A stretch of DNA of 64,000 nucleotides from Eledone cirrhosa (taxonomy: Eukaryota): contig OZ024747.1 in the NCBI GenBank assembly GCA_964016885.1, positions 8,246,001-8,310,000 on the forward strand, written 5' to 3'. This document shows, one piece after another, positions 4,273 through 27,215 of this stretch (position 1 is the first letter of the stretch; every line of letters starts with the position of its first letter). The position numbers were made by a program, and so were the translations under genes. The notes below the pieces were generated by a model. The model did no database searches, had not been told where the DNA came from, and saw only the letters and a list, made by a program, of their open reading frames with translations.

Positions 4273-4400
4273 GCAAAAGTTCTATTTAAAATTGTTGGGA
4301 TACAAGTAAATATTTTTATAACTGATATAAAGCACTCGACAAGTTTTTGGAGTAGATATACGATGTTAATAAATGGAAACTATATTTATAAAACCATATT

Positions 4401-4465
4401 TATTTCATTATACATATTTCAGGGATACCACATTAAATTATGGTATGCCTTCATCAGACAAAATA
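4401..4465 (-). ncRNA. Type I hammerhead ribozyme
   Basis: Minus: UAUUUUGU CUGAUGA AGGCAUACCA-loop-UGGUAUCCCU GAAA UAUGUA UA^ AUGAAAUA. All core nucleotides are present and stems I-III pair. Confidence 0.8.
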
Positions 4466-5243: not shown

Positions 5244-8200
5244 TCACGGTCGTGTGTCATTGATTGAGAGGTGTAGTTGGGTAAGGTCGGCTTTTATCAC
5301 CTCATCCCAAGTCATCTTGGGTCTCCCCACTCCGCGGTTTCCATCAACTTCTAGTGCTCTGCACCTTTTTATGCAGCTGTCATCCTTCATACGCATCACA
5401 TGTCCATACCAGCGTAACCGCCTCTCCTGCACGCAGCATTTGATTCCTCTTATGCTCAGTCTCTCTCTCAATTCATTTATGCTTTGTCGTTCACGTATAT
5501 TACTGTTACACATCCATCGGAGCATGCAGGCTTCGTTTCTCTCTAATCTACGTAAGTCTTCCACCTTCAGCGCCCAGGTCTCACTACCATGCAACATCGC
5601 TGTTCGGATACACGCATCATACAGTCTGCCTTTCATTCTGAGGGAGAAGCCTTTTGCAGCTAGCAGTGGTAGTAGTTCCCTAAACTTCTTCCATCCCGTT
5701 CTTACCCTAGTTATTGTACTTTCTGAGCACCCACCTCCGTTGCTAATTCGGTCACCTAGGTAGCAGAAGCTGTCTACTGTTTCTACAGGGCCCTCCCAGA
5801 GATTGGTGGTACTTGTTTCCTGTGGCTGTTTGCTTGCTGTTTCAGCACAGCTGCTGCATGTGAATCCTACATTCTTAATTAAGCTTCCTGAGATCCCGCT
5901 ACATCTCTTGTGTACCCATTGTTTGCATTTGGGGCAAAGAATGGAGTTCCTACCTACACCTTTCCTACATACTGAGCAAGGCCATTTCCCTGAGGGGATC
6001 TGGGTTCTGTTTTCTCGTCTACTTATAAGGACCTTAGTCTTTGTCATGTTGACTTTGAGGCCCTTTCTCTCTAGTCCCTGCTTCCAGGTTTGGAATTTAT
6101 TCTCTAGTTCTACCATAGATTCAGCTATGAGTGCGAGGTCATCAGCATACAGGAGTTCCCATGGGCATCCGGTCTTAAACTCCTCCGTTATTGCCTGCAG
6201 GACTATGATGAACAGGAGAGGGCTAAGAACAGAGCCCTGGTGGACCCCAACCTGTACGCTAAATTCCTCGCTATACTCATTGCCAATCCTAACTTTGCTG
6301 ACTGCTCCCCTATACATGGCTTGTACCGCTTTCACAAGCCATTCATCTACTCCTAGTTTTCTAAGAGCCCACCAGATTACTGCACGTGGAACTCTGTCAA
6401 AGGCTTTCTCAAGGTCGACAAATGCCAAGTAGAGTGGCTTACTTTTAGCTAGGTACTTTTCCTGTAATTGCCTCACAAGGAAGAGCGCATCAGTGGTGCC
6501 TTTCCCTGGAACAAACCCAAATTGCATCTCGTCTATATTCACCCGGTCCCTAATCAGCTGTGCTATAACTCTTTCTGTTACTTTCATGACCTGGTCCATC
6601 AACTTTATACCTCTATAGTTTCCTCTATCTAGTGCATCGCCTTTACCTTTGTAGCAGTTGACAATGATGCTACTGCACCAATCTTTTGGTATGGCCCCCT
6701 CTAGTATTACCTGGTTAACGATACGTGTGGTTATAGTGTGACCTACAGACCCAGATGCCTTCAGCATCTCGGCAGCTATACCCGATGGACCGGTTGCCTT
6801 CCCTATCTTCATATCTCTGATTGCCTTACTTACTACGCTGCCGCTGACTTGTACTGCTGGTCCCTCTATAGGGTCTACGTGGGGTAGGGTCTCTTCTTCC
6901 CATGCATTCTCCTCATTTAGTAATCTATCATAATGACTCTTCCATGCATCTTTCTTCTCAGCACTTGTGAGGGCAAGCTCACCTTTATCATTCCGGATAC
7001 ACTTCTCTCCAATGACATCACAACTATCTCTGACACACTGCCTCGCAATCTTGAATACCTCCTGTTTCTGGTCCTCACGTTGTAAAACATGCTTGAATTT
7101 TCTATCCTCTGCTTCCCTCCTAGCTAAGTATACTTGTCGCCTAGCTTCCCTCTTGGTCTCTATGTAATGTACCCTGCTCCCCCCGTTCTTCCATTCTTTC
7201 CATGCCTGTCTCTTGGCCTTGACTGCTTCATCTACCTTATTGTTCCACCACCAAGTCACTCTCCTCCTGCTTGAGGTCTTACTCCAGCCACAAACCTCAT
7301 CCGTCGCCTCTAGTAAGTTATTTTTTAGGAACTCCCAGTTCTCTTCTACGTTAAATGTCTCTATCTGTTCTTCTTTACTGTCGTAGGCGTTGAGTAAAAT
7401 ATCTTTAAATCTGTTACTGGTTGAGGGGACTTTCAGCTTCCAGATCTTTCTTCTCCAGGTTGGCCTCTGTTTCAGGGCTCGTCTAGTTCTGACCGTGAGG
7501 TCGCTGACAACTAAGCTATGTTGGGATGTACATTCCTCACTAGGGAAGGCTTTTGTGTTTACGACCGTCCATCTGTCACGTCCTCTGATGAGGATAAAAT
7601 CTAACTGACTAGAGTGCTCCCCTGATCTATAGGTGATCAGGTGGTTGTCGGGTTTTTTAAAGTTTGTGTTACATATCGACATGTCATTGGCGTCGCAGAA
7701 TTCTAGAAGTCTGAATCCTTCCTCATTCCTTGTGCCAACTCCATGGCCTCCATGTACTCTATTGAAGCCGTCGCAGTGTTTACCTACGTGTCCGTTAAAA
7801 TCTCCTGCAATGATTAGGAAGTCCTTGTCGTCTGTTAGAGCAGTAGTGTGTATTAGGGACTCGTAAAACCTATCCTTAAGTTCGTCTGGCAGCCCCGATT
7901 GGGGTGCGTAAGCTGATATTATTGTGGTAATTGTCTTATTCAGGACTAGTCTGAGTTTAATGATTCTTGCATTTACCCTGTACACTGAGATTACTTTATC
8001 TACCCACTTGTCAGCTAATAGTATACCTACACCACCCATCCCATCGTCATTTCCCACCCAGAAAAATTTGTAGCACTGGCTTTTTCCTACAAGGACTCTA
8101 GCAGACCCTCCTCTCCATCTAGTCTCTTGCACACAGCATACATCAACTTCCTTTCGCTCTAGCATTTCTACGATTTCTCCTGCTCTTCCTTTCATTGAGC

Positions 8201-8306
8201 CTACATTGATTGTACCAACTCGGAGTTTTGGGCATTTGTCGACACTCGTAGGGGAGGGTCTCTGGGTTGGCGCTTCACGTGGGTGCTTGGTAGCTCGCAG
8301 ATTCAT
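5244..8306 (-). CDS. RTE ORF: AP endonuclease + reverse transcriptase + PHD-like Cys/His finger
   Basis: Motifs GTINVGS, CVQETRW, GDFNGHVG, SQH, QFGF, FVDLEKAFD, GVHQGSVLSP, YADD, CSVC...CPKCKQWVHKRC...[16 protein letters not shown] probable frameshift near 5262 removes the DRDxWR end. Confidence 0.95.
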   Translation of the reverse strand: MNLRATKHPREAPTQRPSPTSVDKCPKLRVGTINVGSMKGRAGEIVEMLERKEVDVCCVQETRWRGGSARVLVGKSQCYKFFWVGNDDGMGGVGILLADKWVDKVISVYRVNARIIKLRLVLNKTITTIISAYAPQSGLPDELKDRFYESLIHTTALTDDKDFLIIAGDFNGHVGKHCDGFNRVHGGHGVGTRNEEGFRLLEFCDANDMSICNTNFKKPDNHLITYRSGEHSSQLDFILIRGRDRWTVVNTKAFPSEECTSQHSLVVSDLTVRTRRALKQRPTWRRKIWKLKVPSTSNRFKDILLNAYDSKEEQIETFNVEENWEFLKNNLLEATDEVCGWSKTSSRRRVTWWWNNKVDEAVKAKRQAWKEWKNGGSRVHYIETKREARRQVYLARREAEDRKFKHVLQREDQKQEVFKIARQCVRDSCDVIGEKCIRNDKGELALTSAEKKDAWKSHYDRLLNEENAWEEETLPHVDPIEGPAVQVSGSVVSKAIRDMKIGKATGPSGIAAEMLKASGSVGHTITTRIVNQVILEGAIPKDWCSSIIVNCYKGKGDALDRGNYRGIKLMDQVMKVTERVIAQLIRDRVNIDEMQFGFVPGKGTTDALFLVRQLQEKYLAKSKPLYLAFVDLEKAFDRVPRAVIWWALRKLGVDEWLVKAVQAMYRGAVSKVRIGNEYSEEFSVQVGVHQGSVLSPLLFIIVLQAITEEFKTGCPWELLYADDLALIAESMVELENKFQTWKQGLERKGLKVNMTKTKVLISRRENRTQIPSGKWPCSVCRKGVGRNSILCPKCKQWVHKRCSGISGSLIKNVGFTCSSCAETASKQPQETSTTNLWEGPVETVDSFCYLGDRISNGGGCSESTITRVRTGWKKFRELLPLLAAKGFSLRMKGRLYDACIRTAMLHGSETWALKVEDLRRLERNEACMLRWMCNSNIRERQSINELRERLSIRGIKCCVQERRLRWYGHVMRMKDDSCIKRCRALEVDGNRGVGRPKMTWDEVIKADLTQLHLSINDTRP

Positions 8307-8621
8307 ATTTCATCTATTGATTCAGAGTTGCTCGTGTATTCCCAGCTCATCCATCCCTAACGGTGGGAAAATTGAGGGCTAGAAGGACAGTGGTGGTGGG
8401 GTAATGGCAGGGTGTGTTGGGATGCGCCAGAGGAGGAGAGAGTTAGTTAGGCAGGTAGTAGCAGCAGCAGCAGTGGAAATGGCATGCTAGGTTTGATTGG
8501 TCGAATAGACTATGGTGGTGTGTGGGGGTGGGGGGGAGGGAAATTGTGAGGTAGGAACTGAGGGTCGCATGGTAAATATCCAAGTTAATACTACATCAGT
8601 AAAATTAACAATAATAACGTC

Positions 8622-16107: not shown

Positions 16108-16462
16108 AAATCCTGGTGTATTTATTGGCGTTGGATTTTAAAAACCTATATATATGTATAATCATCACCATATATATTATTTTATATAGAAATGACTTCT
16201 GCAGGACTATACTCTACCTATGTATTGGGTACCTTTTCCAACTGTGGTTGCCTCCCAACAGCTTGAGAATCTACATATTATATATATATTAGAGTATGGG
16301 GTTAACCAAACAGATGTGTGTGAACCACACCATGGTCTGTCGGTTGTGAAGTAGATAAAAAGAAGCACTCAACGACCTGTATAAATAGTGCAAATCAGAG
16401 TATTATATATTGATAAAAGATCAGAGGCCATATTCACTTGATTCAGGTTTATTTAAAACTCT

Positions 16463-17109
16463 GTTATACATATTTCACTGAGGACTGTCAGTTGTGACAG
16501 CCTGAGCTCTTCAGACGTTATACATATTTCACTGAGGACTGTCAGTTATGACAGCCTGAGCTCTTCAGACGTTATACATATTTCACTGAGGACTGTCAGT
16601 TATGACAGCCTGAGCTCTTCAGACGTTATACATATTTCACTGAGGACTGTCAGTTATGACAGCCTGAGCTCTTCAGACGTTATACATATTTCACTGAGGA
16701 CTATCAGTTATGACAGCCTGAGCTCTTCAGACGTTATACATATTTCACTGAGGACTATCAGTTATGACAGCCTGAGCTCTTCAGACGTTATACATATTTC
16801 ACTGAGGACTGTCAGTTATGACAGCCTGAGCTCTTCAGACGTTATACATATTTCACTGAGGACTGTCAGTTATGACAGCCTGAGCTCTTCAGACGTTATA
16901 CATATTTCACTGAGGACTGTCAGTTATGACAGCCTGAGCTCTTCAGACGTTATACATATTTCACTGAGGACTGTCAGTTATGACAGCCTGAGCTCTTCAG
17001 ACGTTATACATATTTCACTGAGGACTGTCAGTTATGACAGCCTGAGCTCTTCAGACGTTATACATATTTCACTGAGGACTGTCAGTTATGACAGCCTGAG
17101 CTCTTCAGA
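16463..17109 (-). ncRNA. Tandem array of 12 x 54-bp hammerhead ribozyme units
   Basis: Minus unit: GU CUGAAGA GCUCAGGCUGUCA UAAC UGACAGUCCUCAGU GAAA UAUGUA UA^ AC. Period 54, 12 copies. Confidence 0.8.
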
Positions 17110-17187
17110 TGGCAAAATCTAAAATAAACATTGAAAGTTCCTAAGAAACCTTTAAAATTGGAAAAGTCTAATAATTCCCCCGAAAAA

Positions 17188-17303
17188 GTTCTTTTCATGA
17201 TACAGGGGACCGGCCGAGTGCATGGTGTTGTTTCTTTGATGGCCAGCTGACCATCAAAGAAACAACAACACGCATTCGACCGGCCACATGAATCATGAAA
17301 AGA
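17188..17303. repeat. Imperfect ~55-bp inverted repeat (hairpin)
   Basis: cttttcatgat...tttctttgatgg / ccatcaaagaaa...atcatgaaaag, centred on cagctg. Confidence 0.8.
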
Positions 17304-17329
17304 AAATCTTTTCTGTTGTGAGATTTAGT

Positions 17330-24446: not shown

Positions 24447-26792
24447 GACAAGGGCATAGGTATACTCTGGGGTTGTTATATACAAGGATGAAATTTATTC
24501 CAGTGGACAAGGGGAGCATCAGAAGGTATACTCTGGGGTTGTTATATACAAGGATGAAATTCATTCCAGTGGACAAGGGGAGCATCAGAAGGTATACTCT
24601 GGGGTTGTTATATACAAGGATGAAATTTATTCCAGTGGACAAGGGGAGCATCAGAAGGTACACTCTGGGGTTGTTATATACAAGGATGAAATTCATTCCA
24701 GTGGACAAGGGGAGCATCAGAAGGTATACTCTGGGGTTGTTATATACAAGGATGAAATTCATTCCAGTGGACAAGGGGAGCATCAGAAGGTATACTCTGG
24801 GGTTGTTATATACAAGGATGAAATTCATTCCAGTGGACAAGGGGAGCATCAGAAGGTACACTCTGGGGTTGTTATATACAAGGATGAAATTTATTCCAGT
24901 GGACAAGAGGAGCATCAGAAGGTATACTCTGGGGTTGTTATATACAAGGATGAAATTTATTCCAGTGGACAAGGGGAGCATCAGAAGGTATACTCTGGGG
25001 TTGTTATATACAAGGATGAAATTTATTCCAGTGGACAAGGGGAGCATCAGAAGGTATACTCTGGGGTTGTTATATACAAGGATGAAATTTATTCCAGTGG
25101 ACAAGAGGAGCATCAGAAGGTACACTCTGGGGTTGTTATATACAAGGATGAAATTTATTCCAGTGGACAAGGGGAGCATCAGAAGGTATACTCTGGGGTT
25201 GTTATATACAAGGATGAAATTTATTCCAGTGGACAAGGGGAGCATCAGAAGGTATACTCTGGGGTTGTTATATACAAGGATGAAATTTATTCCAGTGGAC
25301 AAGGGGAGCATCAGAAGGTATACTCTGGGGTTGTTATATACAAGGATGAAATTCATTCCAGTGGACAAGGGGAGCATCAGAAGGTACACTCTTGGGTTGT
25401 TATATACAAGGATGAAACAAGGATGAAATTTATTCGAGTGGACAAGGGGAGCATCAGAAGGTACACTCTTGGGTTGTTATATACAAGGATGAAATTTATT
25501 CCAGTGGACAAGGGGAGCATCAGAAGGTACACTCTTGGGTTGTTATATACAAGGATGAAATTTATTCCAGTGGACAAGGGGAGCATCAGAAGGTACACTC
25601 TGGGGTCGTTATATACAAGGATGAAATTTATTCCAGTGGACAAGGGGAGCATCAGAAGGTACACTCTGGGGTTGTTATATACAAGGATGAAATTTATTCC
25701 AGTGGACAAGGGGAGCATCAGAAGGTACACTCTGGGGTTGTTATATACAAGGATGAAATTTATTCCAGTGGACAAGGGGAGCATCAGAAGGTATACTCTG
25801 GGGTTATGTTATATACAAGGATGAAATTTATTCCAGTGGACAAGGGGAGCATCAGAAGGTATACTCTGGGGTTATGTTATATACAAGGATGAAATTTATT
25901 CCAGTGAACAAGTGGAGCATCAGAAGGTATACTCTGGGGTTGTTATATACAAGGATGAAATTTATTCCAGTGGACAAGGGGAGCATCAGAAGGTATACTC
26001 TGGGGTTATGTTATATACAAGGATGAAATTTATTCCAGTGGACAAGGGGAGCATCAGAAGGTACACTCTTGGGTTGTTATATACAAGGATGAAATTTATT
26101 CCAGTGGACAAGGGGAGCATCAGAAGGTATACTCTGGGGTTGTTATATACAAGGATGAAATTTATTCCAGTGGACAAGGGGAGCATCAGAAGGTACACTC
26201 TTGGGTTGTTATATACAAGGATGAAATTTATTCCAGTGGACAAGGGGAGCATCAGAAGGTACACTCTGGGGTTGTTATATACAAGGATGAAATTTATTCC
26301 AGTGGACAAGGGGAGCATCAGAAGGTATACTCTGGGGTTATGTTATATACAAGGATGAAATTTATTCCAGTGGACAAGGGGAGCATCAGAAGGTACACTC
26401 TGGGGTTGTTATATACAATGATGAAATTTATTCCAGTGGACAAGGGGAGCATCAGAAGGTATACTCTGGGGTTATGTTATATACAAGGATGAAATTTATT
26501 CCAGTGGACAAGGGGAGCATCAGAAGGTATACTCTGGGGTTATGTTATATACAAGGATGAAATTTATTCCAGTGGACAAGGGGAGCATCAGAAGGTACAC
26601 TGTGGGGTTGTTATATACAAGGATGAAATTTATTCCAGTGGACAAGGGGAGCATCAGAAGGTATACTCTGGGGTTATGTTATATACAAGGATGAAATTTA
26701 TTCCAGTGGACAAGGGGAGCATCAGAAGGTATACTCTGGGGTTGTTATATACAAGGATGAAATTCATTCCAGTGGACAAGGGGAGCATTAGA
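24447..26792. repeat. 66-bp minisatellite, ~35 copies
   Basis: Unit gacaaggggagcatcagaaggtatactctggggttgttatatacaaggatgaaatttattccagtg. 68-bp variants occur in the right half. Confidence 0.97.
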
Positions 26793-27215
26793 AACAGTAG
26801 TGATATTATAGTCAAGGTGTATTATACACAAGGAAATATGGTAGGCTATTATTATGGTGGTGGTGGGAATGACCAATAATCTGATACCATCTCTTGTAGT
26901 CAACACCTTCAACTATTTTCTATGACTAATATCAGAGGCACAACAGAACCTGCCTCGAAAACCAAAACTCAACAACAGAAATTTAGAATTATCACCATCT
27001 TTATAGCAATCACCACCACCACCACCAGCAACACTGACATCACAACAACAAAACTATTACCATCATCATCATCATCATCATCATCTAACTCTTTATCTTC
27101 CACAAAATTGCTAACACCATTAACATCATCAGCTACCAAATACTCTCTCAACAACTTTACCTCCTCCCCCTACACACACACACACACATACACACACATA
27201 CATACACACACATAC

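Follow-up and report, generated by a model that had tools for sequence, protein, structure and literature searches.

A twelve-unit tandem array of minimal hammerhead motifs in a Penelope-type element of Eledone cirrhosa

Hammerhead repeats of Penelope-like elements and retrozymes

Minimal type I hammerhead ribozymes reside in the pseudo-LTRs (pLTRs) of metazoan Penelope-like elements, and dimers and trimers of these hammerheads have low activity (Cervera and De la Pena 2014, PMC4209133). Larger head-to-tail units of 150-450 bp, the metazoan non-LTR retrozymes, produce circular RNA, and their cleavage has been shown (Cervera and de la Pena 2020, PMC7229834). A recent survey of vertebrates, three insects, and a coral describes non-LTR retrozymes as pLTR-derived tandem repeats with a consensus of 51-972 bp and up to 300 units (Li, Clavereau, Pollet 2026, bioRxiv 10.64898/2026.07.22.740005). 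A first-pass annotation of the present DNA had put all described animal retrozyme monomers far above 100 nt, a view that this range has overtaken.

The array described here lies in a window of 64,000 bp from Eledone cirrhosa, which is the whole stretch of DNA analysed (assembly GCA_964016885.1, contig OZ024747.1; G000:C7:8246001-8310000 in locus naming). As far as the accessible text of PMC4209133 describes them, the Penelope hammerheads share with this locus the core, a long helix II, a 4-bp helix I, and a palindromic helix III suited to dimers, and they likewise occur in dispersed truncated copies with inverted pairs 100-700 bp apart. In contrast to that description, the window family has, in the parse used here, no G10.1-C11.1 pair and no extra unpaired base after A9; a G.U pair closes stem II (U at this position in 78 of 85 parent-family monomers), and a C.C mismatch occupies the fourth pair. 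A further difference is that in the window array the motif alone is tandemly repeated.

The repeats surveyed by Li et al. are similar in having a type I hammerhead in each unit and in being local amplifications of a Penelope terminal repeat. The window array also has the features of their operational definition of a non-LTR retrozyme (a TRF array of at least two consecutive complete motifs with a minimum free energy below -5, here -14.2 kcal/mol), as judged without their rnabob descriptors. Hammerhead tandem repeats of this size from Penelope pseudo-LTRs are already known from the accessible part of that preprint (down to 51 bp), and its supplementary tables may list 51-54-bp families of the same geometry. 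Unit joints are not mapped in that part of the preprint, whereas here the joint was mapped inside stem I, at seven loci, including one array of more than 750 units.

The circular-RNA retrozymes of PMC7229834, according to its accessible text, resemble the window array in their head-to-tail hammerhead units and low GC content, and dimeric cleavage is possible in principle in both. Their hammerheads are canonical and make loop 1-loop 2 contacts, whereas the 54-bp unit lacks loop 1, is embedded in parent flanks, and is known from DNA alone. The window array lacks the testable functional features of such retrozymes (own mobility and a loop 1-loop 2 contact). The anole Poseidon element PAc, as far as its description extends (PMC11167929), shares an optional 3' tail generated from two RT start sites, AT-rich targets, and a terminal-repeat hammerhead. 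PAc is autonomous, and its hammerhead needs protein for cleavage and is dispensable for insertion in vitro; the parent family here has no ORF.

The array and its parent family

The twelve-copy, 54-bp tandem array proposed earlier was recovered by TRF on the window (Table 1; period 54, 12.0 copies, 99% matches), and 12 CUGAAGA cores lie on the minus strand at a spacing of exactly 54 nt, from 17108 to 16514. Each is followed by a hairpin, GAAA, AUAUGUAU, and the UA site (AUA in 12/12 units), which gives the unit the core CUGAAGA / GAAA / UA; the CUGANGA core, GAAA, and UH site of Penelope minimal type I hammerheads are therefore present throughout. Stem II, the long helix of this class, has 12 pairs, of which the closing one is G.U, and is interrupted by one C.C mismatch (pair 4) and one bulge. 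Stem III, AUAUGUAU, is a palindrome that self-pairs over 8 positions with two G.U pairs, a form suited to dimer folding, and it equals that of the dispersed hammerhead motif at 4457. The short helix I of the class (4-5 bp) is represented in the parent by CCGU/ACGG plus a distal helix; in the array it is represented by only one ACGU per joint (ACGT in 11/11), which, as previously noted, is common to the two neighboring units. The description of the unit as a complete hammerhead holds for the minimal core, but not for the mismatched, bulged, and G.U-closed stem II, nor for the internal units, where loop 1 and the distal part of stem I are absent and with them the canonical loop 1-loop 2 tertiary contact. 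Base-shuffled array units yielded the core plus stem II in 19 of 200,000 trials.

Table 1. Features of the array locus and loci with the same joint
Feature	Position	Strand	Remarks
Hammerhead tandem array, 12 x 54 bp	16463..17109	minus	one minimal type I hammerhead motif per unit
Eleven ACGT joints	16515-16518 and on at 54-bp intervals to 17055-17058	minus	predicted cleavage site directly before each ACGU, on its 5' side
Native 5' flank of parent (pseudo-LTR upstream of hammerhead)	17109..17247	minus	2/45 nearest bases off family majority
Native 3' flank to family's common short 3' end	16410..16464	minus	4/55 bases off family majority; holds AAUAAA
Optional tail of ~120 nt (element body start), ending in TA microsatellite	16289..16409	minus	
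Inverted, truncated second arm of insertion (head-to-head)	17248..17312	plus	53/65 columns identical to direct arm
Joint locus, dimer	C1:11.41M		1 match
Joint locus, dimer	C1:424.87M		1 match
Joint locus, 12-mer	window array		11 matches
Joint locus, trimer	C8:35.92M		2 matches
Joint locus, nine paralogous arrays in segmental repeat, 12-95 units, one insertion	C8:39.1-40.1M		150 matches
Joint locus, ~750 units over 40 kb	C1765, contig start		238 matches; first 60 of 489 kb read
Joint locus, further dimer	C8:46.03M		

Across the 50-nt motif 9 of the 12 units are identical, and the mean difference among the 12 is 0.47 of 50 nt. The variants are those described in the first-pass annotation: a G-C to G.U change in units 5 and 6 from the left, which are adjacent, and a loop U-to-C change in the leftmost unit (3'-most on the ribozyme strand). 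Both are structure-neutral, but the neutrality carries no weight: with one in two random transitions in the array expected to be neutral, a pair of such variants is little evidence, and the sister arrays show no avoidance of the core.

Stem II pairs were read directly, a MAFFT alignment across hammerhead families being too poor in this region for pair counts. The position of the C.C mismatch recurs, with other flanking pairs, in several hammerhead families of the genome. This recurrence speaks for a genuine parent ribozyme that was formerly under selection. The closing pair in the other hammerhead families of the genome is A-U or G.U in most and G-C in one. The check with hammerhead covariance models that had been suggested gave no Rfam hammerhead match over the window at the gathering score, nor over 16380-17200 at E<=10, and no hammerhead is found among the 150 listed of 387 low-scoring matches.

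Other hammerhead motifs lie in the window at 4457 (-), 10059 (+), 15521 (-), and 16100 (-). Together with those at L007, L121, L129, L138, and L180, they represent several unrelated families with a purine-U (once G-C) closing pair of stem II; in most, the fourth stem II pair is mismatched (C.C or C.U), with covarying neighbors and a palindromic stem III. The window also contains a 35 x 66-bp minisatellite (24458-26793, 96% matches) that lacks a hammerhead core on either strand, and six other window minisatellites (48-98 bp) have no such core. An open frame of 1021 codons at 5247-8309 (-), which by its motifs we take to be an RTE-like LINE, has many family fragments elsewhere in the window; by eye, no host exon is evident among the long frames of the window.

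The parent of the array is a dispersed, ORF-less Penelope-type family with a unit of about 1.8 kb and one hammerhead near the pseudo-LTR end. A search of the 3.0-Gb assembly gave 1499 first-look candidates, 40 of them scored, and the 202 exact matches to a 26-letter motif (176 + 26) set the family size at at least 202 copies. A second hammerhead unit occurs at 0 of 55 other pattern-picked parent-family loci examined. Among 85 monomers the majority sequence has CCGT ahead of the core and ACGG behind the site, forming a 4-bp stem I that, in folding, can be extended by a distal helix; the stem I CpGs have decayed in 25-32% of these copies.

Longer parent copies have a pLTR-body-pLTR order, head-to-head inverted arms, and TA-microsatellite targets, and the family has two alternative 3' ends, one short and one long (tailed). 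Direct pseudo-LTRs, an inverted 5'-truncated arm, an optional tail, and microsatellite targets were found at L175, L176, L178, L181, and the array locus; according to the accessible literature, the pLTR arrangement, inverted arms, optional tail, and microsatellite targets are hallmarks of Penelope elements (PMC8557442; PMC11167929). Searches of the parent body turned up neither RT nor endonuclease, and the copies read contain no long ORF: the best endonuclease scores were E 0.026 (tblastn) and 0.066, the latter vs 0.29 for reversed controls, and a Pfam search of the longest conserved frame tested gave no match. Because these hallmarks are present and neither enzyme was detected in the body, the parent appears to behave like a non-autonomous Penelope derivative, an assignment suggested by its structure and not by an encoded protein. 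An autonomous Penelope element with RT and GIY-YIG is present elsewhere in the genome (L103), as a near-intact ORF at 2-1787 (GIY-YIG C-terminal) about 10 kb away from where the C1765 satellite stops; a motif scan of the 700 bases downstream of this ORF found no matching hammerhead.

Both parent flanks lie in register on either side of the array, which bears out the proposal of a Penelope-type minimal hammerhead in pseudo-LTR context. The AAUAAA and aagcactc motifs cited as part of that context fared differently: AAUAAA, at 16453 (minus), belongs to the family's 3' flank, but of the AAGCACTC occurrences at 4330, 9989, 16363, and 53273, only that at 4330 is oriented to its hammerhead as at 16363. 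The tails of two different hammerhead families (window 16363 and 4330) share, on the ribozyme strand and about 70-95 nt past the cleavage site, the 8-mer GAGTGCTT followed by a T-rich run and ATC; the 8-mer and T-rich run are possibly an RT start or recognition signal.

The outer stem I CpGs of the locus have decayed, to CCAT in the 5' flank and ACAG in the 3' flank, whereas the joint CpGs are intact in 11/11. Fourteen same-insertion hammerhead pairs have a mean difference of 4.3 of 50 nt. Because the units differ so little compared with these pairs and with the two arms of the insertion, and because the CpGs decayed outside the array only, the units are far younger than the insertion, and the 12 copies were probably made or homogenised in DNA, in place, long after it.

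The joint in stem I and the fate of the ribozyme

The joint fuses the parent's 3' stem I strand to its 5' stem I strand at the CG they share (CCGU/ACGG). Since this CG microhomology sits inside stem I, 1-3 nt past the predicted cleavage site, the joint is evidently not of the cut-and-ligate type, and a circle of the parent would yield a different joint. No description of a joint inside stem I was found in the literature covered, which lies largely outside subscription journals. An exact 23-letter joint motif has 403 matches in the genome, all of them placed, and the joint recurs at seven loci (Table 1); unit ends are therefore non-random relative to the ribozyme, as the first-pass annotation had anticipated. 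The parent 3' flank is kept at 7/7 of these loci and the 5' flank at 5/6 with an assembled 5' end; the unit was not seen as mobile alone, apart from parent flanks. The C8 arrays at 39.1-40.1 Mb have no 5' flank and begin 0-8 nt upstream of the cleavage site inside a TA/TG microsatellite; no empty site occurs among the nine paralogues, so their 5' boundary is ambiguous.

Several neighbors of these loci were recorded. The C1765 satellite block (38 to about 40600, L098-L102) runs off the contig start. The C8 segmental repeat contains uninterrupted frames of 382-536 aa (L058 171-1736 and 6334-7479; L061; L064) that match Pfam Beta_elim_lyase (E 1e-36, 6e-49). By their motif they are presumably tryptophanase- or tyrosine-phenol-lyase-like, and they are apparently an amplified, intronless gene cluster in an animal genome. 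A 43-bp satellite at G000:C22:12.882-12.896 Mb (L203-L216) holds CTGAAGAGCTCAG, the first 13 bases of the array hammerhead, without GAAA. Both the C8:35.9M trimer and the C8 cluster have a rare G after the site (1/85 monomers), a possible sign of common ancestry, but their 3' flanks are of different variants, and the tree leaves the two unresolved.

Selection on the ribozyme was not seen in the sister arrays. The distinct variants of 313 C8 units number 7 in the core, 14 pair-breaking, and 14 neutral, near the expected 7.5, 15.4, and 12.2; the commonest are mostly neutral, but these are amplified copies and not events. Cores are intact in 290/313 C8 units and in 12/12 window units. The C1765 block is two-thirds core-dead (GAAA changed to GGAA, with stem II mismatches); its core is intact in 254/756 units and ACGT is kept in 743, and joint retention therefore needs no ribozyme function.

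Predicted folds suggest that multimers bury the core. Relative to the minimum, the hammerhead conformer costs 4.7 kcal/mol for one unit, 5.3 for two, and 10.3 for three, and the CUGAAGA strand has a probability of about 0.17 of being unpaired in the full array (0.25 in its first unit), in models that ignore protein help and tertiary contacts. With one ACGU between them, two neighboring units are unable to close stem I at the same time. Cleavage and self-processing into 54- or 108-nt RNAs are accordingly predicted by these models to be weak, and AUA is among the slower natural hammerhead cleavage sites in the accessible text of PMC1636495. An RNA-editing scar was also sought: counting all distinct changes, there is no A-to-G excess (9 A>G changes at 18 A sites vs 5 T>C at 14 T sites).

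Origin and meaning of the array

The array is probably a passive minisatellite, in which a Penelope hammerhead between its own flanks was doubled at the stem I CG and then expanded in place. This route is proposed by Li et al. (2026, bioRxiv 10.64898/2026.07.22.740005), in whose accessible text 1/9 of the dimers cleave. Its starting point is the single hammerhead that the parent family carries near the pseudo-LTR end. The stem I CG would then have been the site of a 54-nt duplication, the geometry of which is plain from the joint, with a hammerhead dimer as its product. Because one joint recurs at seven loci, this most likely happened during retrotransposition, be it in a single source element, in a few of them, or time after time as copies inserted. 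Judging from the divergence of units and flanks, the dimer would later have grown and been homogenised as a minisatellite by DNA slippage or unequal exchange; the only shared variant of the window array sits in two adjacent units, which supports expansion in place. The ribozyme would be a passenger, its predicted multimer cleavage being weak, and nothing in the arrays appears to indicate selection for multimer cleavage.

Some observations stand against parts of this minisatellite reading. Slippage alone does not account for the single register. The sharing of rare alleles in 3/3 dimers fits a later in-place duplication better than one made at insertion, unless conversion followed. The passenger role is opposed by the intact cores of the window array and by the change of the family's A-U to G-C at one pair of stem II.

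Either one or a few source elements acquired the joint and retrotransposition spread it, or a jump guided by the fold happens again and again. We judge it more likely that the origin lay in reverse transcription than in seven independent DNA duplications: by our own estimate, only an extreme hot spot could place seven 54-bp duplications in one 2-bp register among about 1000 copies. Template switches are routine in Penelope insertions. These insertions also use uncleaved RNA (PMC11167929), and both properties add to the case for reverse transcription, for which no RNA-editing scar speaks. A tentative extension, put forward with low confidence, is that stem I itself is a recurrent jump site, at which cDNA made by the telomerase-related RT and ending at the 5'-strand CG re-pairs with the 3'-strand CG, held adjacent in the same RNA or in a dimer partner, and recopies the ribozyme. 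New ribozyme-only repeats would keep arising in one register, and some of the smallest retrozyme-like satellites could release 54-nt self-cleaved RNAs.

It is unlikely that all steps occurred in DNA, with the folding of stem I and stem II in single-stranded DNA making the CG a hot spot and the seven loci being duplicated independently after insertion, a few of them growing further. The alleles of the dimers speak for such a history: rare alleles are shared between the two units of each of 3/3 dimers, differ between dimers, and are shared in 0/14 same-insertion pairs (Fisher p 0.0015, or 0.005 counting the gapped pair L176, dropped earlier, which shares private changes). The joint loci are also scattered on the parent-family tree (7 changes, at least 2 forced by well-supported branches, in a star-like, poorly resolved tree with unsettled bootstrap), and no allele marks all seven. 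A single clade of joint loci is, however, not rejected by the tree test (p-AU 0.33), and enrichment of these loci for two minor family variants (4/7 vs 6/85, p 0.002; 4/7 vs 26/202, p 0.007; both post hoc) suggests shared sources. The register is a further difficulty for a history in DNA. Of the possible registers, 105 have at least 2 bp of microhomology and 28 have longer homology than the observed one, yet a search of periods 55-84 found 0 others (a search with no positive control and with 58-bp units lacking an anchor), periods 24-53 gave only a 52-bp internal-deletion unit (the positive control) and the unrelated 43-bp satellite, and the reciprocal deletion joint has 0 matches with 1 mismatch allowed. 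DNA folding does not single out the observed register, which ranks 17th in DNA loop-out energy; hairpin energy and microhomology length were both considered as its cause and found to be unsupported.

The first-pass annotation had suggested that the array might be a rolling-circle reverse transcript of a ribozyme-only RNA: a 54-nt RNA would cleave itself, circularise, and be copied round and round by a Penelope enzyme, the array being such a copy or seeded by one. The coincidence of the unit with the hammerhead domain, the one joint at seven loci, the starts of the C8 arrays close to the cleavage site, and the intact cores of the window and C8 arrays would all suit this proposal. It is nevertheless very improbable. 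The joint lies off the cleavage site; the native 3' flank, kept at 7/7 joint loci, would be absent from any 54-nt circle; and such a circle has one ACGU, so that stem I cannot close in cis. The C8 starts are blurred by the microsatellite, without an empty site among the paralogues, the A-to-G excess expected of an edited RNA stage is missing, and the largest array is mostly core-dead. For the window array a single rolling-circle reverse transcript is excluded, because the units, to judge from their divergence, were made or homogenised long after the insertion.

Hardly credible is an assembly artefact or inflated copy number, which the 10-11 near-identical units and the lack of a read or contig spanning the whole array would allow, since the units carry position-specific variants (in two adjacent units and one end unit), a contig of run X5, with a depth of 705, reaches across the joint by at least 31 bases in both directions, and another X5 contig holds the C8 flank-array boundary, although X5 may share its source with the assembly.

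Taken as a minisatellite that grew in place, the locus belongs to a worked example of a Penelope terminal hammerhead turning into a satellite: the stages from monomer through dimer, trimer, 12-mer, and 95-mer to a 750-unit block, built on one joint, exist side by side in one genome, and in the large block the core is lost. Pipelines in which any tandem repeat of hammerheads passes as an "active retrozyme" will include passive minisatellites in their counts. Circles of 54 nt, if found, would be among the smallest natural ribozyme circles, a direction in which the DNA evidence does not point. The odd feature is the recurrent joint in a single register, hinting at an RT jump across stem I. If such a jump is real, it would link ribozyme folding to the birth of repeats and would show concretely how the smallest retrozyme-like satellites come into being.
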